From: Botryllus schlosseri
Taxonomy: Eukaryota
DNA length: 64,000 nucleotides
NCBI GenBank assembly: GCA_051294905.1
Contig: CM119371.1
Location: forward strand, 62,001 to 126,000
Direction: 5' to 3'
Positions 35,175 to 61,860 of the stretch are shown here, one piece after another (the first letter of the stretch is position 1; each line of letters starts with the position of its first letter). The notes beneath the pieces were generated by a model. The model was not told where the DNA came from, did no database searches, and worked only from the letters and a program-made list of their open reading frames with translations. A program made the translations under genes and the position numbers.

Positions 35175-35450
35175 GGCTATCGGGTTCTTATGGGCGGGGT
35201 GGCACGGTGCCGAGAAACCGGGGGTGGCACGGTGACCCTTATCTCTTATGGCGGGGGTGGCACGGTGCCATTGTGTCTTATGGCGGGGGTCGCATGGTTA
35301 CCTTTTCGGGTATACGCGCGGCGGCACGGTGCCGTGAAAACTCGTGGTGGTATGGTTACCTTTTCAGGTATAGGCGCGGTGACATGGTGACCTTTCAGGA
35401 GAGATGATTTGACTAACGTTGTGGGTATAGGCGCGGCGGCACGGTGTTGA
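35175..35450. repeat. GC-rich subterminal tandem repeats (~30 bp) of the outer element
   Basis: Repeated TTATGGCGGGGGTGGCACGGTG-like units just inside the terminus. Confidence 0.75.
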
Positions 35451-35946
35451 ATATGTATCAAGTAAATAGTCATGTGATTGGTCCTTAGGTAATGTGTATA
35501 TTCCAAATTACGGCGAGTACGACAATGATATATCGTTATTCTTATGGACGCGGCGATGATTCGTACTTTCGAGTATCTCTCGCATGGTGTTGAATATGTA
35601 CGAGTCACCAACAATAACCACGCGGACGGAAACGTGGCTTGTTGCGAGGATTAAGCAGTGCGACCTATATTTCGAATGACCTGTGCGGTGAATTGTTTCC
35701 CATGCAGCTGTGTGCTACTATCGCTTATTACACTATTCCATTCAGTGCGAAATAGTTTGATCGTAAATTATGATATATGATGTCGTAGTTTAGTCGTGTC
35801 AAATGACCGATCGTGTTCTCTTTCCTCGCTATTGATTGCTACCTGAATAATACTTTCGGCTTATTCGCTGTTTCACACCTACAGAATAGTCCACTGTTCA
35901 CAGTTGCAACAAGAATCACAAGTATACACATTTACACATTCGTTTA

Positions 35947-36317
35947 TTACTCTGAAATCAAACTCTTCACAAAAGCACGTACAATCGTATCATTCACTTT
36001 TTGATCATCGCCAAAATTATCCAAGTATTCCTCGGCTGAAAACCCTTGAGCTCTTTTTATCAAGAATGCAATAGCATGATCTCCACACACATCCGAAGTT
36101 TTACTCTGTAACTGTTTCCCAGTCACAGAAAATTCATCCGGCTCCAGGAATTCGATTATCTGAGGTTTTAGTGGTCCGAAGCCTAGTGAATCATGAAAAT
36201 GAGTATCGCCATCTCTGTATATACACACACCCAGCGAGACCCAGGCAAACTCGACTCGTCGTAATTAATGATGATAGCGAATTTTCCGTTAGTTGGTTTC
36301 TTCGGTATCTGGTCTAG
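35947..36317 (-). pseudogene. Adenain-type (Polinton/adintovirus) cysteine protease, 5'-truncated and frameshifted
   Basis: LDQIPKKPTNGKFAIIINYDESSLPGSRW / VCIYRDGDTHFHDSLGFGP...QLQSKTSDVCGDHAIAFL. Matches the N.D....G.HW...DS.G...Q.....CG pattern. The catalytic His position reads CGC (Arg) and there is a 2-nt frameshift in the GT run at ~36223-36230. Confidence 0.82.
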
Positions 36318-37788
36318 ATTTAATAATTAACGAATAACAGAACCGTCGCAGACGGTGATTCGAATACCGACAAATTCTCACTTATTTCTGATCCAACCCT
36401 AATCCTTTGCGAAGTGGATGCTTATTCAAAAACGTGTGAAATAATTGTAAAACCCTACGGTCGCTGACAGGATAATGCATCAGACATAGCGATCTAGTTA
36501 TAGTACGGTGTCGGAATCCATTCGCGAGATGTTCTAGAGGTAAATTGAGATAATCCGAAACCGAATATTTTGACTTTGGCGTAGTGTGAATTGAAATAGG
36601 ATTGACAAACATGACTACCAACTTTCCCACAGGCCCGTTTCGATATTATACACACATTGATTTGAAACAAGTAATGTAACATTGCAACTCTATTCACGGC
36701 CCCGCTTTCCGTTTGTCAAAGAGATATTTTAACATCTTACCATACTGAAAAGAATTATTCACAACAATAACAATTGTTAAAAATCTAGTTTTCACTTACT
36801 TGATTATATCACTACAACTCATAAATTTGAATTAATTCATCCTGGTTGTATTCGTATGATCGGTCTTTCTTTTTTTCATTCGATTGTAAAGCTCGTTACT
36901 ATTCTGAAGACAAAGTATTTACTAATCGGTGCATACACGATTCGACTTGAACATATTATATTTTGAGTATACGAGATTTGAATGTCTGAACAATAACTGA
37001 GAAATAATTTATCACAATTAAATCCGTAAAAGATATTTGAATGTCAGCAACTCGGTAAGGTCGTAGTTACTACCACATTACCTAATTTACCCGACCAACT
37101 CGTCATGATCATTCCCGAAATCAACACAAACATGACTACTGACTTGAGTCAACCACAAAACAGCATCAAGTTTTAAATCCGCTTGTAGCTTACGGCTTAT
37201 TTGAATGCGGGTTATGTTTTGTTGTAATTGAGTGTACGGAAATAGTATTACGCCTCGACATCTCACCATCTTGCCATCAACAAAAGAGTAAAATACACAA
37301 ACCTTGTCAAGTCAATCCGTTTGTAACTCACCGAACCAAAGCAAAAAGTGTCCATACGAAAAGTAGACAAGACTACGCAAGTAATCACTACAACCCACAA
37401 ACATATCAAGTTCGGTTTTAGCCATATACCACCAACTCGTCTTTTTTGTTCAACTGTAAAAGTCGTTACTATTTTTCAAGACAAAGTAATTACTACTCGA
37501 TAGATTTTGTAAGACAAAAGTAATTACTACTCGATGCAGACGCCTTGAGATTAACCTAACATGTTTGAGTATACAAGATTTGAAAGTCTGGCCATCGTAG
37601 TTGAGAATTCATTTCTTACAATCGAACGTAGGTGTTATATCGAAAATTACCAGGATTGTCACATCGATTTGACATATGGGGTTTTGTAATGGTCTATCAT
37701 GACTTGATTACTAATTTATTTGTGTTAATTAGACTCACCGATGTGGTGAAGGTTATTACGACAGCAACAAACTTTTCACTATCATGGC

Positions 37789-38467
37789 TATTAACATATT
37801 GAGTTGTAAAACTATACGTGTCTGAAATGTTCTTGATTGACAAATCATTCCACCTTGGTACAAATCACTCTGGGTATCGCGGATATCAGAAAATACTTTA
37901 CAAATGTAATCGTTTAAGTTACCAAGACATTAACATTATTATTAACATATTGAGTTGTAAAACTATACGTGTCTGAAGGGGAAGCGAGTGGCGCAGTTGG
38001 TTAAACACTGCGGTCACGACACCAATGGACGTGGGTTCGAATCACGGTTCTGACCCACTTCTACGTGTCGGAGGTTTCTCTGGGCTCCTCATCGCCGACC
38101 TCACTGCAACTGCAGTGCATTGAAAAGCCCAGACTGAAAGTGAGCCGTGCTACAAGTCGGCAGCAACGACCGCGATGGGAACGCTTGGGAGCGAGAGAGA
38201 ATGAAGAATGACTGCGAGAGAGATTGAAAGACGTTCCCAAGAATACTAAAAGCAAAGACCTCTGAACATTATGAAATTCGTGTCGTGGAGCACAAGGCCT
38301 AACCGGCGATAAGCTCCAACTGTGTTGTACCCATTAATACATACATACATACATACGTGTCTGAAATGTTCTTGATTGACAAATCATTCCACCTTGGTAC
38401 AAATCACTCTGGGTATCGCGGATATCAGAAAATACTTTACAAATGTAATCGTTTAAGTTACCAAGAC
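37789..38467 (+). repeat. ~140-bp tandem duplication, second copy interrupted by a SINE
   Basis: TATTAACATATTGAGTTGTAAAACTATACGTGTCTGAA...GTTACCAAGAC occurs at 37789-37928 and again at 37940-38467. Confidence 0.8.
37978..38352 (+). mobile_element. Full-length tRNA-derived SINE
   Basis: A box TGGCGCAGTTGG, B box GGTTCGAATCAC, (CATA)n tail, 13-bp TSD ATACGTGTCTGAA. Confidence 0.9.
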
Positions 38468-39516
38468 TAAAGATGAAACAACAATTCCGTTTGCTGGCTA
38501 ACAACCGGGTAATACTTTATTGTCAGAATCTGTGACGGTGAATTGAAACATACTCATCTTACGCAGTACGAGTAAATCACTTTGGACTCCGGGCGGCGTC
38601 GTTTAATCCGTGTTAAACTCTGTTCACACTCTCTGTCGAATGTGTGAAATGTAAAACATTACGAGGTTACACTCTAAGACTTTGATCAACAGAGAAACAA
38701 TTTTGAATATCTTTACTGGATGGATCCTATTCAACCGACCTTGGTTAATACAAAACTCATAACAATAATAAAATCGAAGTATGTGCTACACTGAAATCTA
38801 GAAAAATGTGTTTGTATTGTTGTTCATAGTAGTGATATCGATTTGAACCTGCGGAATAATTGTCATCATCTAACCAAACTAATGAAAGTCGTTGTCACAT
38901 TGTATGATGTTCACTGAATGCATACTAGTACTATTTGTGCAACACACACGAGCAGAGAAATTGGAAATTTTCCCATTGCCATTTGTCAAAGTAAATGTCG
39001 TCACAATACTCAGTCACTAAAAGACCATATACTTGTATGTGATTGAATCACCAACAATTAACTCGCTAAATCAAATCGTAAGGCAATTTCACGCACTCAG
39101 CGGATATTATACAACGTCGCTTTATCGGTGTGGGTCGTTTTTTCTAAATACAAATCATATCTGTCCAGTAGAAAACAATTTTCACTCACTTGGGTAACGA
39201 AACCAGTGTGCAATATCAACACAAGATATTTTCGTGACACAAAAAATAATCAACTTTACTCAATATTCTCGTAAAACGAAACTGTACAATGGTTTCATAT
39301 TTTTTGTATGACATGGAATTAATACCGATCGAAGTAGCCGCATTGGAAATGATTTTTAAACAAACACACTCTACGTGGTTAACATTCTCATCGATTCTAT
39401 TGTGACCAATGTATACTTCATGTGCTCTGGATTCATTTCGATATGGTTAAGCATTCAGCCTCGACAGTAGTTAAGTAGATCGGTCACGATTCGTACATTT
39501 TTGCATGGGGTAGTAT

Positions 39517-39760
39517 AGGCGGGGTCGCATGCTAACGCGAAAACCGGGGTGGCATGCTAACGTTTTCGTCTTATGGTGGGGTGGCATGCTAACGTTTTCG
39601 TCTTACGGCGGGGGTGGCATGCTAACGTTTTCGTCTTATGGCGGGGGTGACATGCTAACGTTTCGTCTTATGGGTGCGGTCGCATGATAACGCGAAACTC
39701 GTGGTGGCATGCTAATGTTTTTAGGTATACGTGCGGCGACATGCTAACGACGATAAATGT
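39517..39760. repeat. GC-rich subterminal tandem repeats (~32-33 bp), inner element left end
   Basis: GCATGCTAACGTTTTCGTCTTATGGCGGGGGTG units; mirrored at ~55270-55512. Confidence 0.85.
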
Positions 39761-40248
39761 GTCTGTCGTGTATTCTTACGGGATCTGTGGTGATTCACCA
39801 TGTGTTCTTATGGGTGCGGTCGTGATTCGCACTTTCAGACATCTCTCGCGTGGTGTTGAATATGTACGAGTCACCAACAATAACCGCGCAAACGGAAACG
39901 TGGTTTGTTGTGAGGATTACGCGTGCGACCTATATTTCGAATGACCTGTGCGCTGAATTATTTCTCGTCCAGCCGCTACTATCGATTATTACACTATGTC
40001 ATTCAGTGCGAAATAGTTTGCTAAATCTAGGAATCAGTCGCATGGTGTTACTTTAGTAATTAGTTTACCACAGAGCCGGCGTAGCCGGTGATTCGAATAC
40101 CGACAAATTTTCACTTATTTCTGACCCAACCCTAATCCTCTGTGAAGTCGACGCTTATTCAAAAAGGTGTGAAATAATTGTAAAATCCTAATCCGAAACC
40201 GCTTATTTCGACTTTGGCGCAGTGCGCATTGAAATAGGATTGACAAAC

Positions 40249-40560
40249 ATGACTACCAACTTCCCCACAGTCCCGTTTCGATATTATACACACATTGATT
40301 TGAAACAAGTAATGAAACATTACAACTCTATTCACGGTCTGGCTTTTCGTTTGTCAAAGAGATATTTTTACATCTTACCATACTCAAAAGAATTATTCAC
40401 AACATTACCAATTGTTAAAAATCTAGTATTCAATTACTTGATTATATCACTGCAACTCATGAATTTTAAATTAATTCATCCTGGTTGTATTCGTGAAAAC
40501 CAAAAATTTGTCACTAGCCCGCGATCGCTATATGTTTCACACCTCGCGAAAAGTGGCTGA
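40249..40560 (+). CDS. Hypothetical element ORF (103 aa, MTTNFPTVPFRYY...); mirror copy on the minus strand at 54468-54779
   Basis: Open in very AT-rich DNA, with CAAACATG start context; the outer-element homolog (36611-36850) shows synonymous changes plus stops. Confidence 0.4.
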   Translation: MTTNFPTVPFRYYTHIDLKQVMKHYNSIHGLAFRLSKRYFYILPYSKELFTTLPIVKNLVFNYLIISLQLMNFKLIHPGCIRENQKFVTSPRSLYVSHLAKSG

Positions 40561-43500
40561 CTTTAGTTGCGTGATAAGATCCATGAAAATATTCAATCGA
40601 TGTGTTAGTTTGTCAACTTGAAATGTAACTCACTACACAAATCAAGTTGAATCGTATTTGAATGTATTGATTCGACCCAACTCAAATCCTTTGACAAATC
40701 CTATTAACGCGATCTGTCGAATCGAGCGTAACCCGAATATTACTGACGCCGACTTTCAGCCACATTGAATTATTCGCACACCCACGCCGCTGTTTTCACA
40801 ACTATAACTCTACAAGAATCAAGAATCACAAGTACGTGCATTACACAGTTATTGTCTTCATCAACTTGAAATCAAACCCTTAACAAAAACACGCATCTTA
40901 TCACTTGTCAACTCTATCATGAAAATCCTCGAACCCGTATTATTAAGAATGTTATAGTACGGTATCGGAATCCATTCGCGAGAAAGGTGAATCCAAATAA
41001 TCCAGAATGAAATATTTGGACTTGACATAGTGTGAATAGAAATAGGTTTGACAAACATGACTACCAACTTTGATCCAGTCACATTTCAAGATTACACTTT
41101 GAAACAATCCTTGAAACTTACAACTGTATTCACGACTGAGTTTTCCATTTGTCAAATAGAGTTTCAGTAAATACTATCGCGATATTTTAATGTGTTACTA
41201 CACACAATAGAATCAATCAATGAAATAACACCTGTTGTAAATATTTCTAACTTGACAAACACTTGTACATACCGCGATCGACTTGTGACGCGATGAGTTA
41301 AATCGGAATATTTCAATCTATTTGTCGAAACCTTGAACAAACTATCGGGTTATTTTTTGTTGCAATCGAGTGAACGGAAATAGTATTACGTCTCAACATT
41401 TCAACATCTTCCCATACACAAAAGAGTAAAATACAAAAAAACCTTGTCAAGTCAATCCGTTTGTAACTTACCCAACCAAAACAAAAAGTATCCTTACGAA
41501 AAGTAGACAAGACTACGCAAGTAATCACTACAACCAACAAACATATCAAGTTCTGTTTTAGGCATATACCACCAACTCGTCTTATTGGAATGTCAGCAAC
41601 TCTTTACGGTCGTAGTTACAACCACGTAAACTAATTTACCCTACCCACACGTCATGATCATCCCTGAAATCAACACAAACTCGACTACTGACTTGAGTTA
41701 ACCACAAAAACGGCATCAAGTTTTTTAATCCACTTATAGCTGACAGATTATTCGAATACATCGATGGAGAATATTATTGAACTCGTCGGTATTGTTACTT
41801 CAACAAATTACACCGACTGCGAAAGTTAATATCGAATGGTAAGACTTGATCACATATTTGTTGAACACAGAAATGACAAAGAACATGATCGGAATTTTAT
41901 AAACTAGTCATATTACTTTTCACATCTATCAATATCAGAATACAAGTCATCAAACTTTTTGTTAAATGTAACATAGCACTTTTGGAATCGGATTCGTTAT
42001 AGTCGTACAAATTGTATTAAACACAACATCAAAACAAAAGGACTTTTTTAGTTTATTGAAATCAAATCATTCGTCTTCGACTTGTGCTTTTTTAGATTGC
42101 CAGCGACAATTCGTTTCGAGTGAGTTGTAACCAAAGTCAAGATATCTTTGTGTCCACAGATATGGAAGATGAATATAGCTAACACAATCACGAATCGACG
42201 TTTCAGATTATTTCACGGATGTAATAAACTTGTTAGTGTCACCTATCTAAAAGTACGCACGCGCTCGATTTCCATGCCGACTGTTGCGATGTTTAGGATT
42301 CACTTACAATAACCACGGATGAGGATTTAACATCAACGTCGTTACTGGTAGTATTCACAACAGAGAATCCAAACATTACACAGTGTGAAAATATATCTTT
42401 GATATCAAAGCATTATCCCAAGTATACGATTAATAGTCAACTCCGTTCACACTTTCTATAGAACGTGCTAAATGTAAAATATCACGAGGTTGCACTCTAA
42501 GACTTTGATCATTACAAAAAGTAAATTGGAATATGTTTGCTGGATGCATTCAATTCAGCTAGAAATGTCTAGTGCACAACAATCGTAATATCAAGGAAGT
42601 ACTTGCTATCACTAAACGTGTTTTGTATCGTTGTTCATTTGTAGTATTGATTGAAATTGTTTTTGAACACTCAAATAATAATTCCCGACATGAAACCAAG
42701 CCGCTGAAAGTCGTTACCATAACAAAGAAACAATTTGTACGATGTTTGGCAAATGTACCCTATAGTTAGGTGTACTAGAATTATTTGTGTAACACATACA
42801 CCGACAATGCAATCGAAATTTTTTCCGTTGTCATTCGCTAAAGTAAATGTCATCACAATACTCTGTCACTAAAAGACGTTACTCGGGCGTGCTTGAATTC
42901 TAGGCATAGTTCTGATTTACCCAACACAAGACCCAAGGACAACCCTAGTTTCAGTCGAACACAGATATCCAAAATATCGCACACTCCGCTATTCCTAAAG
43001 TACAAACACCCGATACAAAATATTACTTGTTGTGTTGTTGCGGTATCATCTTCACAATATCACCATTTTGTTTGTGTCAATTAGTTACTTTGTATGTTAC
43101 CCCACAACTCTTATAAAAGTACGAAGGATATTAACATCGCACTAAGTAATTAACTTTACTCGATATTCTCGCATTACGAAACTAAAGAATGGTTGGTTAG
43201 ACTCTACAAACTGTTTCGATATCACGAGACCTTTATTGTATCTTAATAATCAAATAGTTCAACACAGAACTAGTACTAACAGAAACACCAGAGTTGTTTA
43301 CACAAAAGTTTGTATATGTGCACAGTATGCGAATACCATGTGTAAGTCCAGCACAATTGCGGTATCCATCCGAGTTTAGTTAACACAAATTTATTACAAC
43401 GGAGTCACGTAAACTTTCGTGAAAGGAAAGCATACTCACTCCCAGAGGGTTATGTCAATGCCATAGCAGTTCCCCAACAACAAAGTACATATGTTTTCTA

Positions 43501-44404
43501 GTCACGGTCCTTACATCTTTCACATAGATCAATCTACTTTGCTAACGAAAAGTGCTAAGTCATCACATGATCGCTCTCACAACAAAACAGCTAGTAGATA
43601 TTATCATTCAAAATATTCCTAACCCTTTACATACCAGTAACAAATCATACAACGAATATGTTTTGTGGGTCGAATTGTTGTTCAGTGTCAAGTCTACCTG
43701 TTGAAACGTACATTAAAACAACACAGTCACAATCAAATTAAAACCACGAATCTATTTTCATTTCCTCGCAAACTGTCACATACAGAAAAATAAATTTAAT
43801 TTCCCAAAACATACTTGTAACCAATCGCTTTCATTAAACACACAACACCATAATAGTATTTACTTTCTACAACATAGACATTCCGGTGTAGTCAAGAAAT
43901 ATTTTTAATAATCAAAATCATCGACTTCTGTTTACGGTGTTAGTGTGTGCATGTCATACATGTGGGCCCGTATTAAAATGGACACGACAGGACTGACTGT
44001 AAGGAGATAGAAGTCTATCGCATAGATTTACATGTGGTCTTCGCTACGGTTTCAAAAAACGAATCATCTCTTTTGCATTGATCTAGACCGAGCAAGTTAG
44101 TTAATGACCATGATTGTGTTTGTCATATGCGAATGATAGGGTTACTGTCAAATCTACATACAACAATCTTCTGACGATCATAATAGCAATTTCATTTTCC
44201 GCCCCTTCATAATTGTACAACTCGGTAACTACGTTTAACAAGACCAATCACACTACCAGCGTTGAACACAAGATACCTACCCAAGTAAAAATATCATTCT
44301 GGTTTGGACAACTGACGTTTACCTGTGTAAAATTATCATTTTCACTTGGAGGTCCACCGTCACCTAACTAAAATACCATTGTCCTTTGGAGATTTATCGT
44401 TTAC

Positions 44405-44885
44405 CCAGTGTAACAATCCCCTTTTCACTTGGAAATATATTTTTGCCCTGGATAACAAACCCCTTTTCCCTTGGAAATCTATTTTTGTCCTGGATAACAA
44501 ACCTTTTTCACTTGGAAATATATTTTTTCTCTTGGTAACAAACCTTTTTCACTTGGAAATCTATTTTTGTCCTGGATAACAAACCTTTTTCACTTGGAAA
44601 TATATTTTTTCTCTTGGTAACAAACCTTTTTCACTTGGAAATATATTTTTTCTCTTGGTAACAAACCTTTTTCACTTGGAAATATATTTTTTTCTTGGTA
44701 ACAAACCTTTTTCACTTGGAAATATATTTTTTCTCTGGGTAACAAACCTTTTTCACTTGGAAATATATTTTTTCTCTGGGTAGCAAACCTTTTTCACTTG
44801 GAAATATATTTTTTCTCTGGGTAACAAACCTTTTTCACTTGGAAATATATTTTTTCCCTGAGCAACAAACCATTTTCACTTGGCG
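44405..44885. repeat. ~41-bp minisatellite in the inner left arm
   Basis: AACAAACCTTTTTCACTTGGAAATATATTTTTTCTCTTGGT units; the mirror array at ~47595-47950 has ~3 fewer units (122-bp offset). Confidence 0.9.
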
Positions 44886-46323
44886 GGTCGTCGTTTACCT
44901 TAGTAAAAATATCATTTTCCTTTGGAGATCCGGCGTTTACCTAGTGTAACAATAAATTTTCTCTTGGTCATCTAGCTTTTCCTAGAGTAACAAAACCATT
45001 TTCATTTTGAAATCTGACAAACACACCTAACAATTTGGTATTTGTTGTATTGACGATACTTTGAAATAGATTACAACGAACAGTGACGGAAATATACACG
45101 GACTTCCGGTTTCAGAGTATACCCTCATCAGTCGTATCACATCAATATCATTGGTTAACCACATACAATATGCTCTTGTACACCGAAATGCATGTTTTGG
45201 AAAATTGGACAATAGGCTTCGATAGTCCTGTGATGTCCGGGTTCGTGCTTTGGATTTTCCAGAGTCAAAATGTCTGAATAAAACACCTCCTCGACGATGG
45301 TTGGTATGTGGATAACGGTGTTCGGAAAACGGTTGGATTTATGTCACCCATCGCGATAACAATTCCAGGTCGAGTTTTCCCCCACGCATGTTTACTATAT
45401 TGTGTCTTTATTGGTCAATGTATGTCTCGACATTCAGTTTGAAATCGGAAACCCTGATAAAGTATGTAACCGGATCCGGATATCAATTCTGAATCGATAA
45501 ACCAATGAACGATATTCAAAGTAAACATGTTACATCCTGTGTTTCCACGAAAAAATACCATCCAGACATACGTCGCGCTTGTTTACCCACAACAGTATAC
45601 GCGTAAATGGAGGTGTGTGACATTGCATGCAATGTGTTGGTATACAAACATCGGGCAGTAAGCCTTCGATCCACAGACATTATCATAGCCGGTAGTTTTG
45701 ATGTAGATCGAATGTCATCACACCCGATAACAATGTCATACCAATAAACCACATTACAATGACTCTGAGTCAATCTGAAGCAGAACATACAGACACCGTT
45801 CACTGATTTACTCGATGGTTTTATCGCGTTGTAACATTACAAGATAGTCATGACCCTATCTCCGGACAGACGTCCCAGATCAATTGGATACATGGGTCAA
45901 TATCCATCGTGTTGTCGAGACCGAAGTTTTCTGCTGAGACTGCAGCGTTTCACCAATGTGAACTATCGAAGTACGGTGCTCGAAATGATTGTGATCAGTC
46001 TTTCAGTCACGATGCAAGGATGTCGCTACTCCCACATAACGACTCCAGATAAATATCGTGAACAGTGATTCTGAAAATCTCGGACTGATACTGTGATCCA
46101 ATAAGGTATGTTTCTGTGGAATGAAGACTGCAATCGTACACCACAATAGAACACTACCTCGCTATTTCACACGCAATCATAAAACACATCATCGTAAGGG
46201 TCCAGTTCGTCCGGCAACATTTCGAAACGGTCATCGCCACAAGAGATCGGGTTGGTCTCGTCGTATCGGTAGCATTTTGAAACTGTCATCACCACAAGGC
46301 TATTGACGTCGTTTCGGTTGGTC

Positions 46324-46599
46324 ATGTCAATCCGTTTTACAATTTACCGTTTTTCAACTCCTCGCACCATACTGTTACGACACAGACAAGAAGCGTCGGT
46401 GGAAATGATAAAACACGGAAGGCACACTTTGGTGTTATTTGATATGGATTTTACACCAGACGAACCTCACATTCGAGCGATGCATTTGAATGGTGATTGT
46501 ATTATTGATGTCCAAGGAAAAGAAATGTATCGATTTATCGGTTTCGTACATATCCAACAAAAACCTGGGTATATGATTGTGCACGGTTCGCATATTTGA
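46324..46599 (+). CDS. Hypothetical 91-aa protein in the central spacer
   Basis: MSIRFTIYRFSTPRTILLRHRQEASVEMIKHGRH...VQGKEMYRFIGFVHIQQKPGYMIVHGSHI; the last 29 codons differ from the outer copy (60277-60366) only by 4 synonymous changes. Confidence 0.55.
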   Translation: MSIRFTIYRFSTPRTILLRHRQEASVEMIKHGRHTLVLFDMDFTPDEPHIRAMHLNGDCIIDVQGKEMYRFIGFVHIQQKPGYMIVHGSHI

Positions 46600-47594
46600 C
46601 TGTGATCACAATATTGGTATGTACTGTACAGTTCACTTTCACCGTTGTGCGAATAACCCATGTTACGGTTCCATGTTTGTGTGTCTGTATGTCCAGCTTC
46701 AGATTGACTCAGAGTCATTGTAATGTGGTTTATTGGTATGACATTGTTATCGGGTGTGATGACATTCGATCTACATCAAAACTACCAGCTATGATAATGG
46801 CTGTGGATCGAAGGCTTACTGCCCGATGTTTGTATACCAACACATTGCATGCAATGTCACACACCTCCATTTACGCGTATACTGTTGTGGGTAAACAAGC
46901 GCGACGTATGTCTGGATGGTATTTTTTCGTGGAAACACAGGATGTAACATGTTTACTTTGAATATCGTTCATTGGTTTATCGATTCAGAATTGATATCCG
47001 GATCCGGTTACATACTTTATCAGGGTTTCCGATTTCAAACTGAATGTCGAGACATACATTGACCAATAAAGACACAATATAGTAAACATGCGTGGGGGAA
47101 AACTCGACCTGGAATTGTTATCGCGATGGGTGACATAAATCCAACCGTTTTCCGAACACCGTTATCCACATACCAACCATCGTCGAGGAGGTGTTTTATT
47201 CAGACATTTTGACTCTGGAAAATCCAAAGCACGAACCCGGACATCACAGGACTATCGAAGCCTATTGTCCAATTTTCCAAAACATGCATTTCGGTGTACA
47301 AGAGCATATTGTATGTGGTTAACCAATGATATTGATGTGATACGACTGATGAGGGTATACTCTGAAACCGGAAGTCCGTGTATATTTCCGTCACTGTTCG
47401 TTGTAATCTATTTCAAAGTATCGTCAATACAACAAATACCAAATTGTTAGGTGTGTTTGTCAGATTTCAAAATGAAAATGGTTTTGTTACTCTAGGAAAA
47501 GCTAGATGACCAAGAGAAAATTTATTGTTACACTAGGTAAACGCCGGATCTCCAAAGGAAAATGATATTTTTACTAAGGTAAACGACGACCCGC

Positions 47595-47950
47595 CAAGTG
47601 AAAATGGTTTGTTGCTCAGGGAAAAAATATATTTCCAAGTGAAAAAGGTTTGTTACCCAGAGAAAAAATATATTTCCAAGTGAAAAAGGTTTGCTACCCA
47701 GAGAAAAAATATATTTCCAAGTGAAAAAGGTTTGTTACCAAGAGAAAAAATATATTTCCAAGTGAAAAAGGTTTGTTATCCAGGACAAAAATAGATTTCC
47801 AAGTGAAAAAGGTTTGTTACCAAGAGAAAAAATATATTTCCAAGTGAAAAAGGTTTGTTATCCAGGACAAAAATAGATTTCCAAGGGAAAAGGGGTTTGT
47901 TATCCAGGGCAAAAATATATTTCCAAGTGAAAAGGGGATTGTTACACTGG
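47595..47950. repeat. ~41-bp minisatellite in the inner right arm
   Basis: Reverse complement of the 44405-44885 array. Confidence 0.88.
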
Positions 47951-50004
47951 GTAAACGATAAATCTCCAAAGGACAATGGTATTTTAGTTAGGTGACAGTG
48001 GACCTCCAAGTGAAAATGATAATTTTACACAGGTAAACGTCAGTTGTCCAAACCAGAATGATATTTTTACTTGGGTAGGTATCTTGTGTTCAACGCTGGT
48101 AGTGTGATTGGTCTTGTTAAACGTAGTTACCGAGTTGTACAATTATGAAGGGGCGGAAAATGAAATTGCTATTATGATCGTCAGAAGATTGTTGTATGTA
48201 GATTTGACAGTAACCCTATCATTCGCATATGACAAACACAATCATGGTCATTAACTAACTTGCTCGGTCTAGATCAATGCAAAAGAGATGATTCGTTTTT
48301 TGAAACCGTAGCGAAGACCACATGTAAATCTATGCGATAGACTTCTATCTCCTTACAGTCAGTCCTGTCGTGTCCATTTTAATACGGGCCCACATGTATG
48401 ACATGCACACACTAACACCGTAAACAGAAGTCGATGATTTTGATTATTAAAAATATTTCTTGACTACACCGGAATGTCTATGTTGTAGAAAGTAAATACT
48501 ATTATGGTGTTGTGTGTTTAATGAAAGCGATTGGTTACAAGTATGTTTTGGGAAATTAAATTTATTTTTCTGTATGTGACAGTTTGCGAGGAAATGAAAA
48601 TAGATTCGTGGTTTTAATTTGATTGTGACTGTGTTGTTTTAATGTACGTTTCAACAGGTAGACTTGACACTGAACAACAATTCGACCCACAAAACATATT
48701 CGTTGTATGATTTGTTACTGGTGTGTAAAGGGTTAGGAATATTTTGAATGATAATATCTACTAGCTGTTTTGTTGTGAGAGCGATCATGTGATGACTCAG
48801 CACTTTTCGTTAGCAAAGTAGATTGATCAATGTGAAAGATGTAAGGACCGTGACTAGAAAACATATGTACTTTGTTGTTGGGGAACTGCTATGGCATTGA
48901 CATAACCCTCTGGGAGTGAGTATGCTTTCCTTTCACGAAAGTTTACGTGACTCCGTTGTAATAAATTTGTGTTAACTAAACTCGGATGGATACCGCAATT
49001 GTGCTGGACTTACACATGGTATTCGCATACTGTGCACATATACAAACTTTTGTGTAAACAACTCTGGTGTTTCTGTTAGTACTAGTTCTGTGTTGAACTA
49101 TTTGATTATTAAGATACAATAAAGGTCTCGTGATATCGAAACAGTTTGTAGAGTCTAACCAACCATTCTTTAGTTTCGTAATGCGAGAATATCGAGTAAA
49201 GTTAATTACTTAGTGCGATGTTAATATCCTTCGTACTTTTATAAGAGTTGTGGGGTAACATACAAAGTAACTAATTGACACAAACAAAATGGTGATATTG
49301 TGAAGATGATACCGCAACAACACAACAAGTAATATTTTGTATCGGGTGTTTGTACTTTAGGAATAGCGGAGTGTGCGATATTTTGGATATCTGTGTTCGA
49401 CTGAAACTAGGGTTGTCCTTGGGTCTTGTGTTGGGTAAATCAGAACTATGCCTAGAATTCAAGCACGCCCGAGTAACGTCTTTTAGTGACAGAGTATTGT
49501 GATGACATTTACTTTAGCGAATGACAACGGAAAAAATTTCGATTGCATTGTCGGTGTATGTGTTACACAAATAATTCTAGTACACCTAACTATAGGGTAC
49601 ATTTGCCAAACATCGTACAAATTGTTTCTTTGTTATGGTAACGACTTTCAGCGGCTTGGTTTCATGTCGGGAATTATTATTTGAGTGTTCAAAAACAATT
49701 TCAATCAATACTACAAATGAACAACGATACAAAACACGTTTAGTGATAGCAAGTACTTCCTTGATATTACGATTGTTGTGCACTAGACATTTCTAGCTGA
49801 ATTGAATGCATCCAGCAAACATATTCCAATTTACTTTTTGTAATGATCAAAGTCTTAGAGTGCAACCTCGTGATATTTTACATTTAGCACGTTCTATAGA
49901 AAGTGTGAACGGAGTTGACTATTAATCGTATACTTGGGATAATGCTTTGATATCAAAGATATATTTTCACACTGTGTAATGTTTGGATTCTCTGTTGTGA
50001 ATAC

Positions 50005-52669
50005 CAAAGTCACTCAACTATGACAAGTCGTCCGAACGTATTTTCATGGAGCGAGAAATGTTGCACAACTTGATGTTACGTAGTATGGCGCCTTACGGCG
50101 AACGTCGTTGTAGGTTGGATTATTTGGAGTTCGCGGCGCAAATATGGCTGGATGTGCTGTGAAAGGTCAAGAAAATGACGCATAAAGGAAGGGTAGCTCA
50201 AGAAGGAAGCAAAATAGTGTCTGACAGAGATTGTCCTGTTCTATTTCGCTTCCCAAGAAATCCAATCCTCAACGTCGTCACTTCAGAAGAAGTGGGATCA
50301 AAGGTACAGTACCGTAGTATTAGTAGTAAGTCTACTGTAGTACATGTAGTGTTCGTAAAAGTCAAATATAGAGACCTTTAGCTTTCACATACGGTACACA
50401 ATGAAATGTGGACTGTTAATTTCTCAAAACTAATATGGTGTGAAGTTAACTTGATACAGTCCATTGTTGTTATGAGTGTATACCAATTGAGTAATAAAAA
50501 TACTGAAATACAAATTTGATGTGTCTCAGGTGACCATCAGCATTGATCATTGCCTAGTGATATGACACGTTCATGGTTCATCCTCAGTGTCTTTATATTA
50601 TCCTAATCATGGGTTATATTTTATGCAGCATATGATTTCACTGGAAGAATTCCACCAATAGAGAGAAGACTTTGTAGTCTTGAAATTATTTTTCGCTTGC
50701 TAACAAACCGGTCAAGGTGGTACATGTTGTTTCGGATGAGTCTTCGTGCGGATGTGGAAAGCGGCTGGCTGGTAAGATTCAATTGTATACTGCTGAAGAG
50801 TACCATTGCTTAGCATTGTATAATACCGTTTGCAGATAGGAATGAAATACCATCTGCTGATAATCTAAGATCAGCCCTGAGTTACCCGTCAAGCATATTC
50901 AACCATCCGTCACTAATCACGATACCATATGATTTTGCGAGAACAGCTGCACACTGGAAACCTTATCCCTCGGTTATGGAACAGTGTCGGGGGTTCTCAC
51001 AAACCCTGAATTTCTTAAAGTGGCAATATCATTTTCATCGTATTGTTGTGCTTTGTCATTATCAGTGACCTTGAGCATTTTTCAAATGATTACATCTGTC
51101 ACTAAATGAAATTTCCAATAATAGCCTACATGGAAACCAGTTGAAGCCGGCATTTGACTATCGAGCATACTTTGTAATGTAGCCATACGCAGTTGGTGTT
51201 GTCTGCAAAACGCATCCTTGATTTTCTCTGGTTTGGGCAGTCCACAAAGGGTGCACTCGCAAATTTATTTAGTTTGGTACGAGATCAATTTTAGTGTATT
51301 TATTCATTTAGTATGTTATATTTTTATTCAGGTCTGCATGCGGGAAATTATCATGCAACATCAACGGAATTCATTGCTTCTTGTGAAAATGATGACGGTA
51401 CCTCAATTCCATATTCCATGCGAACCCCAAATTGATGACTCGGAATATGAATGCATGGAATCGCTCTCAGACGTATCTTATACTATCTGGCCCTGGTGGG
51501 TTGGACATTCACCAATCGTTCATTTTTTCGTGGTGCACTGGACGATGTTCGTGCAGCCAGCCCACTATGAACCGGTCCTATACCAATACCGAGAAAACCA
51601 TTGCCGAGAATGCTATTACCGAGAATGGACATTACCGGCAGTCGTCAAGCATGTCTAAGTCTACATGCAAGCTGTTTCTACTGAATGAATACAATTCGGC
51701 CTGCAGGACTGTGATATGATATGTCGACATTTTTATTGCTAGTCCTTTTTATGTTTTCTTTTCCTGGAGTGTATATGCCTCTTATTTACATGCTCTTGGT
51801 CAAGGTGCGGGAATGATTAAAATGACCGATCCAAATCATTTAGACACCGTTCAATTGTTTTCCTTATATTGCCACCTTGAGGTGTTTTGATCTGATGGAA
51901 ATTTCAATAAATGGCTGGGACTACCTATATTTCGTGTCATCCAAATACATGGATCTATCACAGAAAGCACCCGTAAATTTGTTGTCAGATTTAGAATTGT
52001 TGAAGAGAAACGAAGAATCGTACGAGGGAGAAACCAGTATGCTTGGAAATGTGCTGCAAGGTCAGGTATAAGACGAAAAATAATGAAAAACTTATTTTTA
52101 CATCTGAGGACTTTGAGGATAAGGTTTCTACATGTTAGTTCTCATCTATTGCATAAAAGTTGCTGCAGACATGTGTTTAGAAGCGGAGGCTAGTCAGAAA
52201 TCCCGGTGTGAAGGGTGGTAGTTGTCTGCTTGCAGGTTGGTTGTCTAGTCAGTGAGTACTCCAGTTCCATTGGGCAGTGATACCAGGTCATGGAATTCGT
52301 GCGGCTATGGTGGAATGTAAAACTGGACGGTCATGACCAGCAATAATCCTGCATCCCGACTAGTAATATTTTCGGTCTACGCCAAGATTGATATTGCAGC
52401 ATATATAAGGTATATTTCGTTTGAAGGTCAACCATACAGAAATATTTCGTTTTAATATCGTTGAAATACATACTGCAATCCTTGAAATCCCACACAGCCA
52501 AATAATTCTCGAGAAATAACCGTTAAAAGTCGAAATATAAGGTCGGCAAGCACGGATTTCCATTACCGCAGGTTAGCGCCGACGGACTTTTGTGCAACAT
52601 TTTGCGCTCCAGTACTCTCATAACATTGCGCTTATTAGTCGGACGACTTGTCATAGTTGAGTGACTTTG
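50005..52669 (+). mobile_element. P-element-like TIR DNA transposon with a decayed THAP-like start
   Basis: Perfect 31-bp TIR CAAAGTCACTCAACTATGACAAGTCGTCCGA; 8-bp TSD GTGAATAC; absent from the left arm. Remnant MAGCAVKG..N / VLFRFPRNP at 50144-50300. Confidence 0.8.
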
Positions 52670-55600
52670 GTGAATACTACCAGTAACGACGTTGATGTTA
52701 AATCCTCATCCGTGGTTATTGTAAGTGAATCCTAAACATCGCAACAGTCGGTATGGAAATCGAGCGCGTGCGTACTTTTAGATAGGTGACACTAACAAGT
52801 TTATTACATCCGTGAAATAATCTGAAACGTCGATTCGTGATTGTGTTAGCTATATTCATCTTCCATATCTGTGGACACAAAGATATCTTGACTTTGGTTA
52901 CAACTCACTCGAAACGAATTGTCGCGGGCAATCTAAAAAAGCACAAGTCGAAGACGAATGATTTGATTTCAATAAACTAAAAAAGTCCTTTTGTTTTGAT
53001 GTTGTGTTTAATACAATTTGTACGACTATAACGAATCCGATTCCAAATGTGCTATGTTACATTTAACAAAAAGTTTGATGACTTGTATTCTGATATTGAT
53101 AGATGTGAAAAGTAATATGACTAGTTTATAAAATTCCGATCATGTTCTTTGTCATGTCTGTGTTCAACAAATATGTGATCAAATCTTACCATTCGATATT
53201 AACTTTCGCAGTCGGTGTAATTTGTTGAAGTAACAATACCGACGAGTTCAATAATATTCTCCATCGATGTATTCGAATAATCTGTCAGCTATAAGTGGAT
53301 TAAAAAACTTGATGCCGTTTTTGTGGTTAACTCAAGTCAGTAGTCGAGTTTGTGTTGATTTCAGGGATGATCATGACGTGTGGGTAGGGTAAATTAGTTT
53401 ATGTGGTTGTAACTACGACCGTAAAGAGTTGCTGACATTCCAATAAGACGAGTTGGTGGTATATGCCTAAAACAGAACTTGATATGTTTGTTGGTTGTAG
53501 TGATTACTTGCGTAGTCTTGTCTACTTTTCGTAAGGATACTTTTTGTTTTGGTTGGGTAAGTTACAAACGGATTGACTTGACAAGGTTTTTTTGTATTTT
53601 ACTCTTTTGTGTATGGGAAGATGTTGAAATGTTGAGACGTAATACTATTTCCGTTCACTCGATTGCAACAAAAAATAACCCGATAGTTTGTTCAAGGTTT
53701 CGACAAATAGATTGAAATATTCCGATTTAACTCATCGCGTCACAAGTCGATCGCGGTATGTACAAGTGTTTGTCAAGTTAGAAATATTTACAACAGGTGT
53801 TATTTCATTGATTGATTCTATTGTGTGTAGTAACACATTAAAATATCGCGATAGTATTTACTGAAACTCTATTTGACAAATGGAAAACTCAGTCGTGAAT
53901 ACAGTTGTAAGTTTCAAGGATTGTTTCAAAGTGTAATCTTGAAATGTGACTGGATCAAATTTGGTAGTCATGTTTGTCAAACCTATTTCTATTCACACTA
54001 TGTCAAGTCCAAATATTTCATTCTGGATTATTTGGATTCACCTTTCTCGCGAATGGATTCCGATACCGTACTATAACATTCTTAATAATACGGGTTCGAG
54101 GATTTTCATGATAGAGTTGACAAGTGATAAGATGCGTGTTTTTGTTAAGGGTTTGATTTCAAGTTGATAAAGACAATAACTGTGTAATGCACGTACTTGT
54201 GATTCTTGATTCTTGTAGAGTTATAGTTGTGAAAACAGCGGCGTGGGTGTGCGAATAATTCAATGTGGCTGAAAGTCGGCGTCAGTAATATTCGGGTTAC
54301 GCTCGATTCGACAGATCGCGTTAATAGGATTTGTCAAAGGATTTGAGTTGGGTCGAATCAATACATTCAAATACGATTCAACTTGATTTGTGTAGTGAGT
54401 TACATTTCAAGTTGACAAACTAACACATCGATTGAATATTTTCATGGATCTTATCACGCAACGAAAGTCAGCCACTTTTCGCGAGGTGTGAAACATATAG
54501 CGATCGCGGGCTAGTGACAAATTTTTGGTTTTCACGAATACAACCAGGATGAATTAATTTAAAATTCATGAGTTGCAGTGATATAATCAAGTAATTGAAT
54601 ACTAGATTTTTAACAATTGGTAATGTTGTGAATAATTCTTTTGAGTATGGTAAGATGTAAAAATATCTCTTTGACAAACGAAAAGCCAGACCGTGAATAG
54701 AGTTGTAATGTTTCATTACTTGTTTCAAATCAATGTGTGTATAATATCGAAACGGGACTGTGGGGAAGTTGGTAGTCATGTTTGTCAATCCTATTTCAAT
54801 GCGCACTACGCCAAAGTCGAAATAAGCGGTTTCGGATTAGGATTTTACAATTATTTCACACCTTTTTGAATAAGCGTCGACTTCACAGAGGATTAGGGTT
54901 GGGTCAGAAATAAGTGAAAATTTGTCGGTATTCGAATCACCGGCTACGCCGGCTCTGTGGTAAACTAATTACTAAAGTAACACCATGCGACTGATTCTTA
55001 GATTTAGCAAACTATTTCGCACTGAATGACATAGTGTAATAATCGATAGTAGCGGCTGGACGAGAAATAATTCAGCGCACAGGTCATTCGAAATATAGGT
55101 CGCACGCGTAATCCTCACAACAAACCACGTTTCCGTTTGCGCGGTTATTGTTGGTGACTCGTACATATTCAACACCACGCGAGAGATGTCTGAAAGTGCG
55201 AATCTCGACCGCACCCATAAGAACACATGGTGAATCACCACAGATCCCGTAAGAATACACGACAGACACGTTTATCGTCGTTAGCATGTCGCCGCACGTA
55301 TACCTAAAAACATTAGCATGCCACCACGAGTTTCGCGTTATCATGCGACCGCACCCATAAGACGAAACGTTAGCATGTCACCCCCGCCATAAGACGAAAA
55401 CGTTAGCATGCCACCCCCGCCGTAAGACGAAAACGTTAGCATGCCACCCCGCCATAAGACGAAAACGTTAGCATGCCACCCCCGGTTTTCGCGTTACCAT
55501 GCGACCCCGCCTATACTACCCCATGCAAAAATGTACGAATCGCGACCGATCTACTTAACTATTCTCGACAGATACGAATTGTCACACACTCAACTAATAT

Positions 55601-57039
55601 CATACCAAATAGTTATATACAACAACCAAGACACAGAAAATTTGTTTTGGCCGTTTCGATTTTACTACTGGAGGTACTCATCACTTCGCTTAATACAATC
55701 TAGATTTAAACCCCATCGAACCTTTGGTGTCTATCGTTTTGCTGGATACGAATTATGTTAGTCTAACAGTAAACAATTTTCACAATCTTGGGTTATGAAT
55801 TCAATGTGTTGGCGGTCGTTCATTATTTTGTTTGTATCAACTAGTTACTTTGTAGGGTATGAATGAGCACCCTCCCACAACTCTTACAAAAGTACGAAGG
55901 ATATTTACATCACACAAGTAGTCGACTTTACTTCATATCCTCACACTACGAAACCAAATGGTTGTTTAGACTCTACAAACTTTTTTACACGAATGGTCAC
56001 ACATCTAAATATTCAAATAATCCAACACACAACAATAATACTTACAGAAATATCATAGTTCTTGTAACAAAGGTGTTTATCGTAAGTCCTACACAGTCAT
56101 GATAACCGTCCGAGTTTGACTTTTAGAAAATATTATATCGATACATCTTTCAAAAACAAAACCGTGGTCACTGCTTGAGAGACCTGCCAATGATATCACA
56201 ATAATACAGTTACTTCCACAAAAAAAAAATATGTATTCGACTTACTTTCCACAAATCTAACACACAAAACAATTTACTTTGCTAGCGAAAAGTGCTGAGT
56301 CATCATATGATTGTCCTCACAACAATACAACTAAAACATACTATCATACAAAATGGTCGTTATAGTTTGCACCCCAACGATACATCGTAAAAGTAACAAG
56401 TTTCAAGAATCGAGTTATTGAAAAACGTGAAAGTGTTTCTCCTGTGTCAAGTCGTTATGTTGATGAAAGTGTATATTGTAATATCATGATCAATTTGCAT
56501 TCGTTGGTCACAAACTGTCACTACTCTAAATAATTATTTTTCACTCAAACACAACAGCATACTTGTCGCCATTCGTTTTCATCAAGCACGAGGTCAAGAA
56601 ACTTACTTACTACGACATGAATTGGTATTTTTATGTTGTGTAAATACGTAATAATTAATTTTAGTAACACTATATCAACATCATCGAGTTGTGCGAATAG
56701 ATTTTCATGTGGTCTTGCGGTTTTAATCGAAGCACACATCATGATCTAATGTAGAGTCGTCTCTATTGTATAGCAACTCGGTAATCGAAATGCATGCATT
56801 AACATTTAAACAGCGATCGTGTTTCGTCACGCGAAAAATATGTTCACTACCGCGATACTCTGCACAGGGCGTGCAAATCCTTTTCACACTCGTAATAGTA
56901 TACCAACGGCTACCGGCGACAACGTTTAACAATACCAACGACACTAAACATACGATACCTACCCAAGTAAAATTTCCATTTTCACCTGGAGGTCAGCCGT
57001 TACCTGACTAAAAATACCATTGTCCTTTGGAGATCTTTG

Positions 57040-57600
57040 GTTTACCTAGAGTGACAATACATTTCACTTGGCGATCTACCTTTTCCTACAGTAGCAATAA
57101 CCTTTCCGTTTGGAAATATATTTTTCCCTGAGTAGCAAACCATTTTCACTTGGCAATCTATATTTTCCCTGAGCAACAAACCATTTTCACTCGGCGATCC
57201 ATCGTTTACCTGATTAAAAATATCATTTTCCTTTGGAGATCTGACGTTTACCCAGAGTAAGAAACCATTTTCACTTGTAAATATATTTTTTCCTTGGCTA
57301 ACAAACCTTTTTTCACTTGGAAATATATTTTTTCCTTGGCTAACAAACCTTTTTCACTTGGAAATATATTTTTTCTCTGGTTAACAAACCTTTTTCACTT
57401 GGAAATATATTTTTTCTCTGGTTAACAAACCTTTTTCACTTGGAAATATATTTTTCCCTGGGTAACAAACCTTTTTTCCCTGAGCAACAAACCATTCTCA
57501 CTTGGTGGTCCGTCGTTTAGCCGAGTAAAAATATCATTTTCCTTTGGAGATCCGGCGTTTACCCAGTGTAACAAAACATTTTCACCTGGAAAAATACTTT
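57040..57600. repeat. ~41-bp minisatellite in the outer left arm
   Basis: Same unit as in the inner element; mirrored at ~61300-61860. Confidence 0.85.
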
Positions 57601-57609
57601 TACCTAGAG

Positions 57610-58897
57610 CAGTGGGTCCCAACGTGGGCGATATCGCCCCCCAGGGGGCGATTTGTCGGTCCTGGGGGGCGAAAATAGCCAAGGGGGCGATAGGGGGGCG
57701 AAAACGGACGAAGGGGGCGATTGGGGGGCGATGGCGCGTTGAAATGGCTATATTGGCGTCCATGGCCGTAACTGTCACACCCAAGCCCCCAATTGAGATG
57801 GGGGGCCCACAATTCTTTCGTGAATTAACATTAATTATAGAGTATTATTTTGGAAATTTAGGCAACTTTTTCAAAAAATTTTCGCGCTGCGCGCCATTTC
57901 GTGGACGCATATTTCTTGCCTATTGGATACCCTTCCTCCTAGAAATAATACGCATGAAGTATAGAAATGGGCATCTCGGCGTCAGCCATTATCACACCAT
58001 GACGCACCAAGACATATGAAGTTTCAGGCCATGTAACATGCGACTCCGAGAAAACCTTGGCGGAAAAAGACTGCCTTTATGCTGACCGACTTCGATATAT
58101 AGACATATATATTTAATTGTCCATAGGCGCCTAAATGGCTGGCGCCAAATGCTCCTGTTCTGTCCAATCAGAACCTCACAAATAAATGCCATACCGCAGA
58201 GAAAAATTAGTTACCAGTGCAGAAATGCCAGTTTGAAATCGAAATCGTGTGCGACTTTTAGTTTAGTACGTATGGGCGATTTGAATATCTTTTGACATAG
58301 CAGACTGGCCACGAAATGTCATGTCATATGTTCAATTATTATTTATGGGCCCTACATTTTCCAAGACACCTCACTCAGCTTTAACGGTAAATCTGAATAC
58401 ATGAGCAGAGAGAAGATAAAAAATTGACAGCAATATTTATGCAATTCCCGAGCATATTGACCGATTCAATCATGAATAATAGAAATTTTTCGCGCTTCGC
58501 GCGAATTAGGCCGACTAACTAAAGAGTCCAACAATTTGTGCTGAGAAGTAGCGGTAAAGAGGTATCGGGGGAGTTGGGTCTGCGGGGCGCAGAAGTTTGC
58601 TTTATAGCGCTATGGAGGGGGTCAAGACCAACGTATTGAGGGGGGCTGACGAAGTGCTGTTACGGTCCTTTGGGAATCAAGTCAGAGAAATCACCTTTTC
58701 TGTTAGTCAACTCACCAAAATTTAGCTGGAAAAGTGTAATTTCGAGGTCGAGCCGAAAAGTTGACCTTTTTTTCTTAGTCAACTCGCCGGTGATTTCAGT
58801 GTGTATGCCCATTTTTGTGTTCCCAATATTTGGGGGGCGATTATCGGTGTGGAGTTTGAAAAGGGGGCGATGAGTCGAAAAAGGTTGGGAACCACTG
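57610..58897 (-). mobile_element. Non-autonomous hAT (Charlie-like) element, copy 2
   Basis: TIR CAGTGGGTCCCAAC / GTTGGGAACCACTG; TSD ACCTAGAG; single-copy empty site in the right arm at ~61287; homolog of 7720-8991. Confidence 0.92.
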
Positions 58898-61299: not shown

Positions 61300-61860
61300 T
61301 ATTTTTCCAGGTGAAAATGTTTTGTTACACTGGGTAAACGCCGGATCTCCAAAGGAAAATGATATTTTTACTCGGCTAAACGACGGACCACCAAGTGAGA
61401 ATGGTTTGTTGCTCAGGGAAAAAAGGTTTGTTACCCAGGGAAAAATATATTTCCAAGTGAAAAAGGTTTGTTAACCAGAGAAAAAATATATTTCCAAGTG
61501 AAAAAGGTTTGTTAACCAGAGAAAAAATATATTTCCAAGTGAAAAAGGTTTGTTAGCCAAGGAAAAAATATATTTCCAAGTGAAAAAAGGTTTGTTAGCC
61601 AAGGAAAAAATATATTTACAAGTGAAAATGGTTTCTTACTCTGGGTAAACGTCAGATCTCCAAAGGAAAATGATATTTTTAATCAGGTAAACGATGGATC
61701 GCCGAGTGAAAATGGTTTGTTGCTCAGGGAAAATATAGATTGCCAAGTGAAAATGGTTTGCTACTCAGGGAAAAATATATTTCCAAACGGAAAGGTTATT
61801 GCTACTGTAGGAAAAGGTAGATCGCCAAGTGAAATGTATTGTCACTCTAGGTAAACCAAA
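61300..61860. repeat. ~41-bp minisatellite in the outer right arm
   Basis: Reverse complement of 57040-57600. Confidence 0.85.

Follow-up and report, generated by a model that had tools for sequence, protein, structure and literature searches.

We analysed a 64,000-nucleotide stretch of Botryllus schlosseri DNA (assembly GCA_051294905.1, contig CM119371.1, positions 62,001 to 126,000 of the forward strand; hereafter the window), in which positions 39466-55563 are taken up by an element that is almost entirely one long inverted repeat. This inner element measures 16,098 bp, or 13,425 bp once a secondary insertion of 2,665 bp is subtracted, and it lies within the left arm of another, diverged member of its foldback family, which extends from 35149 to beyond 64000 and was missed by an earlier, sequence-only reading of the window. 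We found that the inner element transposed as a single palindromic unit. Judging from their termini and insertion footprint, the members of this family are probably non-autonomous dependants of the Maverick/Polinton machinery.

Two nested foldback copies of one family

The features of the two copies are listed below by window position. TSD stands for target-site duplication, and hAT1 and hAT2 are secondary insertions of hAT type.

35143-35148, TACGAG, predicted left TSD of the outer element
35149-39465, + strand, outer left arm, part 1, opening with an 18-mer identical to the inner terminus
39460-39465, no strand, inner left TSD, CTCGAC
39466-45796, + strand, inner left arm, 6,331 bp
39466-39483, + strand, terminal 18-mer AGTAGTTAAGTAGATCGG, opening with the (AGT)2 end motif and exact also at 35149
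39513-39749, + strand, subterminal array, 8 copies of a ~25-nt motif (...GGGGTGGCATGCTAACG) spaced 25-33 bp apart, bases 48-284 from the end
44380-44992, + strand, array of 11 copies of a 41-bp tandem repeat, inner left arm
45797-46680, no strand, inner spacer (hairpin loop), asymmetric, 884 bp
46681-55563, - strand, inner right arm, split by hAT1
50005-52669, no strand, hAT1, 2,665 bp, in the inner right arm only, inverted ends CAAAGTCAC...
55564-55569, no strand, inner right TSD, CTCGAC
55570-59747, + strand, outer left arm, part 2, holding hAT2
57610-58897, no strand, hAT2, 1,288 bp, in the outer left arm only, 8-bp TSD ACCTAGAG
59748-60472, no strand, outer spacer, 725 bp, homologous to and co-oriented with the inner spacer
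60473-64000, - strand, outer right arm, running past the window end (about 3.6 kb beyond)
63327-63332, no strand, empty target site with one CTCGAC, in the outer element's sister arm, reverse orientation

A repeat search over 38000-57000 resolved the inner element into three inverted blocks that are collinear, with 99% complementarity in every one (39540-42363/52665-55488, 42351-44712/47643-50004 and 44687-45796/46681-47790). When the left arm (39466-45796, 6,331 bp) was aligned with the reverse complement of 46681-50004 plus 52678-55563 (6,210 bp), the arms differed at 25 of 6,209 aligned positions (0.40%), 15 of them transitions, and by one 1-bp indel. They also differ by 122 bp (3 x 41 bp) within the tandem array, whose mirror at 47594-47945 in the right arm holds three units fewer than the left. 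The near-perfect inverted repeat around an 884-bp spacer that the sequence-only reading described is therefore real. No decayed palindrome was found inside that spacer (45797-46680).

The ends of the family open AGTAGTTAAGTAG..., and the 18-mer terminus at 39466 recurs exactly at 35149-35166, where shuffles gave a chance expectation of 0.01 for such matches. The inner right terminus, read on the reverse strand at 55546-55563, is AATAGTTAAGTAGATCGG, which begins AATAGT... and, as had been claimed, lies one mismatch from the left terminus. Inward of the left end, the GGGGTGGCA-type motif forms the subterminal array, which is mirrored at about 55336-55484 in the right arm and has a related counterpart at 35180-35400 in the outer copy. 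We regard these ~25-nt motif copies as candidate protein-binding sites.

Both flanks of the inner element carry CTCGAC; rejoined over a single copy of it, they agree with the reverse complement of 63263-63396 at 133 of 134 bases. The 6-bp flanking duplication and the empty site at about 63327, both proposed from the sequence alone, are thus confirmed; the empty site is visible because the element lies within another foldback copy of this family. It is the arms, the TSD and this empty site that together show the element to have been mobile as one unit. We also considered whether the palindrome might be two elements arranged head to head, and rejected this, as the inner arm ends carry no terminus motifs; with no internal terminus copies, each palindrome is one element.

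Two further insertions interrupt the foldbacks. The 2.67-kb insertion recognised earlier in the inner right arm is hAT1, and we class it as hAT-type because of its inverted ends and its perfect 8-bp TSD, GTGAATAC, at 49997-50004 and 52670-52677. The ends of hAT2 read CAGTGGGTCCCAAC.../...GTTGGGAACCACTG. The foldback itself has a 6-bp TSD and so does not share the 8-bp footprint that these two nested insertions have.

Assembled without its insertions, the outer left arm consists of 35149-39465, 55570-57609 and 58906-59747 (7,199 bp in all), and the outer copy has a predicted full length of about 15.1 kb (about 15,123 bp, hAT2 and the inner element excluded). Where both outer arms fall inside the window, 14 of 3,527 positions differ between them (0.40%). 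The outer half is collinear with the inner half throughout, from the subterminal repeats through the arm, the 41-bp array and the centre to the spacer, and the axis of the two copies agrees to within about 25 bp. We therefore have a second copy at an independent site with an identical 18-mer and the same axis. No further family fragments were found in window positions 1-35100, where a terminus match with 3 mismatches at 26326 is attributable to chance.

The two copies are far less similar to each other than are the arms within each. In a global alignment the inner and outer copies are 67.9% identical overall and 42-79% identical in the arm interiors. Most of the arm differs by 20-55% between copies, yet the arms are 99.6% alike within each copy. 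Their centre, made up of the spacer and the innermost ~630 bp of each arm (45166-46680 in the inner copy), is 90-96% identical between copies, and the spacer is the best-conserved part of the family. The foldback form is shown to be inherited and not made on the spot, because the whole palindrome moves as a unit and two diverged lineages share its axis.

In base composition, both foldback copies are GpC-poor (observed-to-expected ratio, o/e, 0.55-0.78) with a CpG o/e of 1.07-1.35; host positions 1-35148 have a GpC o/e of 1.03. The arms are strongly strand-asymmetric, with a GC skew on the inward strand of -0.106 in the inner copy and -0.149 in part 2 of the outer left arm, and the skew is mirrored in the opposite arms of both copies.

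Coding content and abundance of the family

To the extent that Pfam, Rfam and tRNA scans show, the family is non-coding. We scanned with Pfam 150 open reading frames (ORFs) of at least 58 aa across 34478-63771 (151 were present; 34087-34275 was left out) and a second set of 102 ORFs of 33-57 aa from 39466-46700, which covers the inner left arm and spacer. Across these 150 and 102 ORFs of both copies, no recognisable pPolB, integrase, capsid, ATPase or protease domain was found, in agreement with the earlier reading. The only Pfam matches at E<=0.01, all below the cut-off, were a mirror-image DUF7499, one thymosin and a RING-finger in each spacer. Rfam and tRNA scans of the window returned 0 hits.

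The RING-finger matches (zf-C3HC4_3; 46470-46775, - strand, E 0.003, and 60273-60458, - strand, E 0.0015) sit where the family is best conserved. They are sub-threshold, and the spacer ORF frames around them are not kept between the inner and outer copies. We treated RING-finger coding in the spacers as noise, which it probably is.

The terminal 20-mer and the subterminal 17-mer each had 0 loci in viral contigs. An 18-mer, TAGTTAAGTAGATCGGTC, had 8 loci (L001-L008) in marine metagenome contigs, all in one unrelated conserved gene with at most 21 nt of identity, and a second subterminal 18-mer had 3 loci (L009-L011) in viral contigs that were seed-only matches; we rejected both sets as chance. 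The terminus searched as a literal string in the literature returned unrelated papers only.

Public sequencing runs show that the family is clearly a high-copy repeat. Part of the centre is present in 20 of the 24 public runs listed, which come from 9 studies and all from the same organism; no RNA run is listed as having it. We compared 39300-46900 (7.6 kb) with four runs at 90% identity or better, with the following results, which are depth figures and not copy numbers.

Run X1, contigs: 150,568 pieces at 90% or better, 44,361 at 99% or better
Run X4, contigs: 7,719 pieces at 90% or better
Run X10, contigs: 847 pieces at 90% or better
Run X23, raw RNA reads (about 6% of the run): 192 reads at 90% or better, 190 of them only partly on the stretch

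In the three contig runs, which belong to three different studies, every one of the 30 bins of the stretch was covered, both borders between arm and spacer included. A deletion joint, 40391>41437, was seen in all three contig runs; some X1 contigs skip the 41-bp array (44417-44958), and X4 depth varies about 100-fold between bins. Shorter deletion derivatives exist and are possibly much commoner than the full form.

Relationship to Mavericks and to other transposable elements

The size, ends and footprint of the family can be set against what has been described for Mavericks/Polintons. According to the cited parts of the respective papers, the Polinton model comprises a 6-bp TSD, 5'-AG ends, a terminal tandem repeat of 1-3 bp and a racket-shaped single-strand intermediate (PMC4196379), and in vertebrate Mavericks the commonest end motif is 5'-(AGT)2//(ACT)2-3', which is tied to jump-back priming, while terminal inverted repeats (TIRs) measure 46-1,447 bp and intact elements 12.7-24.6 kb (PMC8097293). 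Polintons generally are given as 13-25 kb with TIRs of 100-1,500 bp (PMC10748475). The family resembles these autonomous elements in several respects. A 6-bp TSD was found, in the inner element alone; AGTAGT opens two of the three visible termini (39466 and 35149), with AATAGT at 55563 on the - strand; and the clean units of 13-15 kb (13,425 bp inner, about 15,123 bp predicted outer) fall within 12.7-24.6 kb. TIRs are present too, but they measure 6,331 bp (inner copy) and 7,199 bp (outer copy), roughly four times the vertebrate maximum.

It is in these arms and in gene content that the family departs from autonomous Mavericks. Autonomous elements carry pPolB, integrase, capsid, ATPase and protease, and their TIRs are 46-1,447 bp against arms of 6.3-7.2 kb here; about 94% of the clean family element is inverted repeat, and it is very highly repeated, both unlike an autonomous Maverick. 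The closest published case is that of butterfly polintons, whose ~2-kb TIRs contain hexon and protease genes and whose polB-less derivatives stayed active, as reported in the cited part of a 2026 preprint (bioRxiv 10.1101/2025.02.07.637071); the 6.3-kb arms exceed these TIRs and both published ranges. The butterfly elements show that Maverick TIRs can grow by internal duplication and that polB-less copies can keep spreading. They differ from the family in still encoding most of a virus, whereas the family is non-coding and its TIRs are three times longer.

By definition, a Polinton has genes for a protein-primed PolB and for a retrovirus-like integrase (PMC5499653, cited part). Neither gene was found among the ORFs scanned from the two copies, and a capsid, packaging ATPase or protease gave no Pfam hit. 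Since this gene-content definition fails, the family can only be a non-autonomous dependant and not a strict Polinton, and dependence on the Maverick/Polinton machinery is what the sequence of its ends and its footprint make probable. Tlr1 has sometimes been termed a non-autonomous polinton, and Polinton-N1A_NV has a capsid gene; in neither case is a non-coding element with multi-kilobase arms described. The earlier proposal of a mobile non-autonomous Polinton derivative therefore stands in part: the element is mobile, non-coding and TSD-flanked, and the hallmarks match, but Maverick descent is not shown, because no Maverick-derived sequence is recognisable in the arms.

Several observations weigh against assigning the family to the Maverick machinery. 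Termini and footprint are its sole link to Mavericks, the arms having no recognisable gene remnant and the ORFs of both copies no Maverick domain. Only one complete TSD pair is seen, the outer right end lying beyond the window. Cut-and-paste foldback elements, too, typically have subterminal motif arrays and internal tandem repeats, and so high a repeat depth is not usual in Mavericks. The (AGT)2 statistic was obtained in vertebrates, and the host here has no CpG depletion (o/e 1.04), which in itself would argue against a vertebrate host. Finally, the arm GC skew, read inward from the terminus, is -0.106, opposite to what we would expect from deamination of a displaced strand.

A rival reading is that the family is a foldback of some other, possibly undescribed, cut-and-paste superfamily, with a 6-bp TSD of its own and an AGTAGT end that arose by chance or convergence. 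We consider this unlikely. Like the family, the foldbacks of Drosophila (FB), Galileo (P superfamily) and Mutator/Foldback Tm1 are nearly all inverted repeat with tandem repeats in their arms, most of their copies are non-coding, and the arms within a copy are more alike than those of different copies. Their TSDs are 7-10 bp, against 6 bp here, and their ends are not AGTAGT; the arms of the family are longer than theirs, and its unit size is virus-like. Arrays of ~25-nt subterminal motifs and 41-bp repeats are classic for transposase-bound foldbacks (compare Galileo), Maverick genes or remnants were found nowhere in the window, and the high copy number together with deletion derivatives (40391>41437 in 3 contig runs) resembles the amplification of miniature inverted-repeat transposable elements.

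The 6-bp footprint, rare among the DNA-transposon groups described so far, is also not unique to Mavericks, as it is reported for Ginger2/TDD and GingerRoot DNA transposons as well (PMC6839031, cited part). These share with the family the TSD length and integrase-type chemistry, being integrase-related cut-and-paste elements, but they end in TA..TA or TG..CA and have TIRs of 100-150 bp (PMC6839031, cited part), whereas the family has AG.../...CT ends and 6.3-kb arms. The known cut-and-paste families with a 6-bp TSD thus do not end in AG. Moreover, the first six bases of the family are the commonest Maverick end motif, a fixed hexamer that would occur by chance 1 time in 4,096, and its unit sizes lie within the Maverick genome range. 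For these reasons we prefer the Maverick-dependent reading.

Arm symmetry, surroundings and wider meaning

Two copies that differ so strongly nevertheless each have nearly identical arms. After insertion, the arms diverge from each other in the chromosome. At four of the 25 inner mismatches (40220, 41872, 42102 and 43632) independent runs mostly carry the base of the right arm and the left-arm change is private, which indicates that the arms are decaying separately in place. Lineage-specific segments, by comparison, occur in both arms of their own copy, while hAT1, hAT2 and the 16-kb inner element each stay on one arm. Because the copies differ strongly, the arms within a copy are near-identical and in-place insertions are one-armed, it is quite possible, if somewhat short of probable, that the arms are re-made symmetric during propagation and not in the chromosome.

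Alternatively, the family could be double-stranded DNA that the Maverick-type integrase moves by itself and whose arms have no replicative role and are kept alike by chromosomal gene conversion. Arm-to-arm conversion can homogenise large chromosomal palindromes, and the arm divergence of 0.40% in both the older outer and the younger inner copy could reflect a balance between mutation and conversion instead of age. Against this, the three insertions remain one-armed with clean TSDs and the private changes at four of 25 mismatches run counter to the family majority, so that no conversion is visible since insertion, and the symmetric lineage-specific segments span hundreds of bp, across which conversion, being poor across heterology, would have to operate. 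In-place conversion appears to fit the symmetry less well than re-symmetrisation through a hairpin during propagation, and as an account of the family as a whole we rate it lower than the cut-and-paste foldback considered above. That the palindrome is an assembly artefact, from a fold-back chimeric long read or mis-joined haplotypes, is very improbable: long-read assemblers can produce false inverted duplications and no single listed contig spans the stretch, but the arms are told apart by substitutions, by repeat number and by transposable element insertions bounded by perfect 8-bp TSDs, the unit itself is flanked by a perfect 6-bp TSD and matched by an empty site, the architecture recurs in two diverged copies, and the centre with both arm-spacer borders is unbroken in contigs of three runs from three studies.

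Returning to the Maverick-dependent reading, a mechanism can be proposed that would connect the symmetry with the termini. The layout of the family is a terminus, about 240 bp of subterminal motif repeats, an arm of 6-7 kb, a unique loop of 0.7-0.9 kb and the mirror arm. The helper's protein-primed polymerase would copy the unit extrachromosomally, using the terminal AGT-AGT for jump-back priming as in the published model. A single strand could then fold on its TIRs into a 6.3-kb hairpin with an 884-nt loop, whose blunt end would equal a normal origin. Repair or fill-in of the stem would equalise the arms, after which the polymerase would make a duplex for the integrase to insert. As the TSD and termini suggest, a retrovirus-like Maverick integrase acting in trans would likely join the AGTAGT... 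ends to a staggered 6-bp cut. At this locus the inner copy jumped whole into the outer left arm, and the two hAT elements landed afterwards.

Defective viral genomes offer a parallel. Adenovirus defective genomes reportedly contain long inverted duplications of the left end. Snap-back defective genomes arise when one end is copied back on itself, giving a palindrome of nearly full length (PMC13506859, cited part), and adenovirus, a relative of Mavericks, is described as using protein priming from inverted terminal repeats with repeated packaging motifs adjoining them (PMC5033970, cited part). The snap-back analogy fits the family in form. Snap-back genomes and the genomes of incomplete adenovirus particles are infection products with parental sequence, whereas the family is germline-integrated, long-evolving and without parental genes. 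The copy-back picture put forward in the sequence-only reading accordingly received no direct support, the arms having no recognisable Maverick-derived sequence.

Taken to its furthest point, this reasoning would make the family a satellite that depends on an endogenous Maverick virus and has the form of a snap-back hairpin: gene-less, left with only the ends of the virus, an array of binding sites and a conserved centre, its arm regenerated each round via a helper-primed, self-folded strand, its length kept at 13-15 kb by packaging into helper capsids, and its copies outnumbering the helper by orders of magnitude in the animal germline. We offer this complete scenario as a speculative one, conceivable but doubtful; its suggestion that the virus-like unit length reflects packaging is based on two sizes only.

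In the left half of the window lie exons of an integrin alpha chain (+ strand, 4565-26853) with an inserted VWA (I) domain, which mark the host as an animal.

4565-4870, 4931-5320 and 10319-10531, + strand, VWA exons of the integrin alpha chain
13249-14022, + strand, FG-GAP of the integrin alpha chain
16023-16313, 20669-20959 and 26644-26853, + strand, Ig-like domains 1-3 of the integrin alpha chain

For one VWA exon, the closest relative with a solved structure is the human integrin alpha-L I domain (E 1e-5). Protein searches with the ORF at 34478-35074 and with one integrin exon returned no match. An intron-like part of this locus (7746-8968) holds a non-autonomous relative of hAT2 that is 81-88% identical to it and has ends CAGTGGGTCCCAAC....

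In the literature searched, with Repbase and Dfam outside that search, we came across no report of a Maverick-type element that is gene-less and has multi-kilobase arms; the family may already have a catalogue name. Its interest lies partly in what it could contribute to the biology of Mavericks. Maverick/Polinton replication is described as untested, the racket-strand protein-priming model being a matter of bioinformatics only (PMC4196379, cited part). An abundant, recently active, gene-less hairpin family with cis-acting parts alone would be a natural substrate for testing the Polinton model. It would also help to define the minimal ends of a Maverick and to probe for satellites or defective-interfering parasites of animal Maverick viruses. 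For the host, near-perfect long palindromes act as fragile sites and could give rise to hairpin RNA, so that a high-copy family of them matters for genome stability and silencing.

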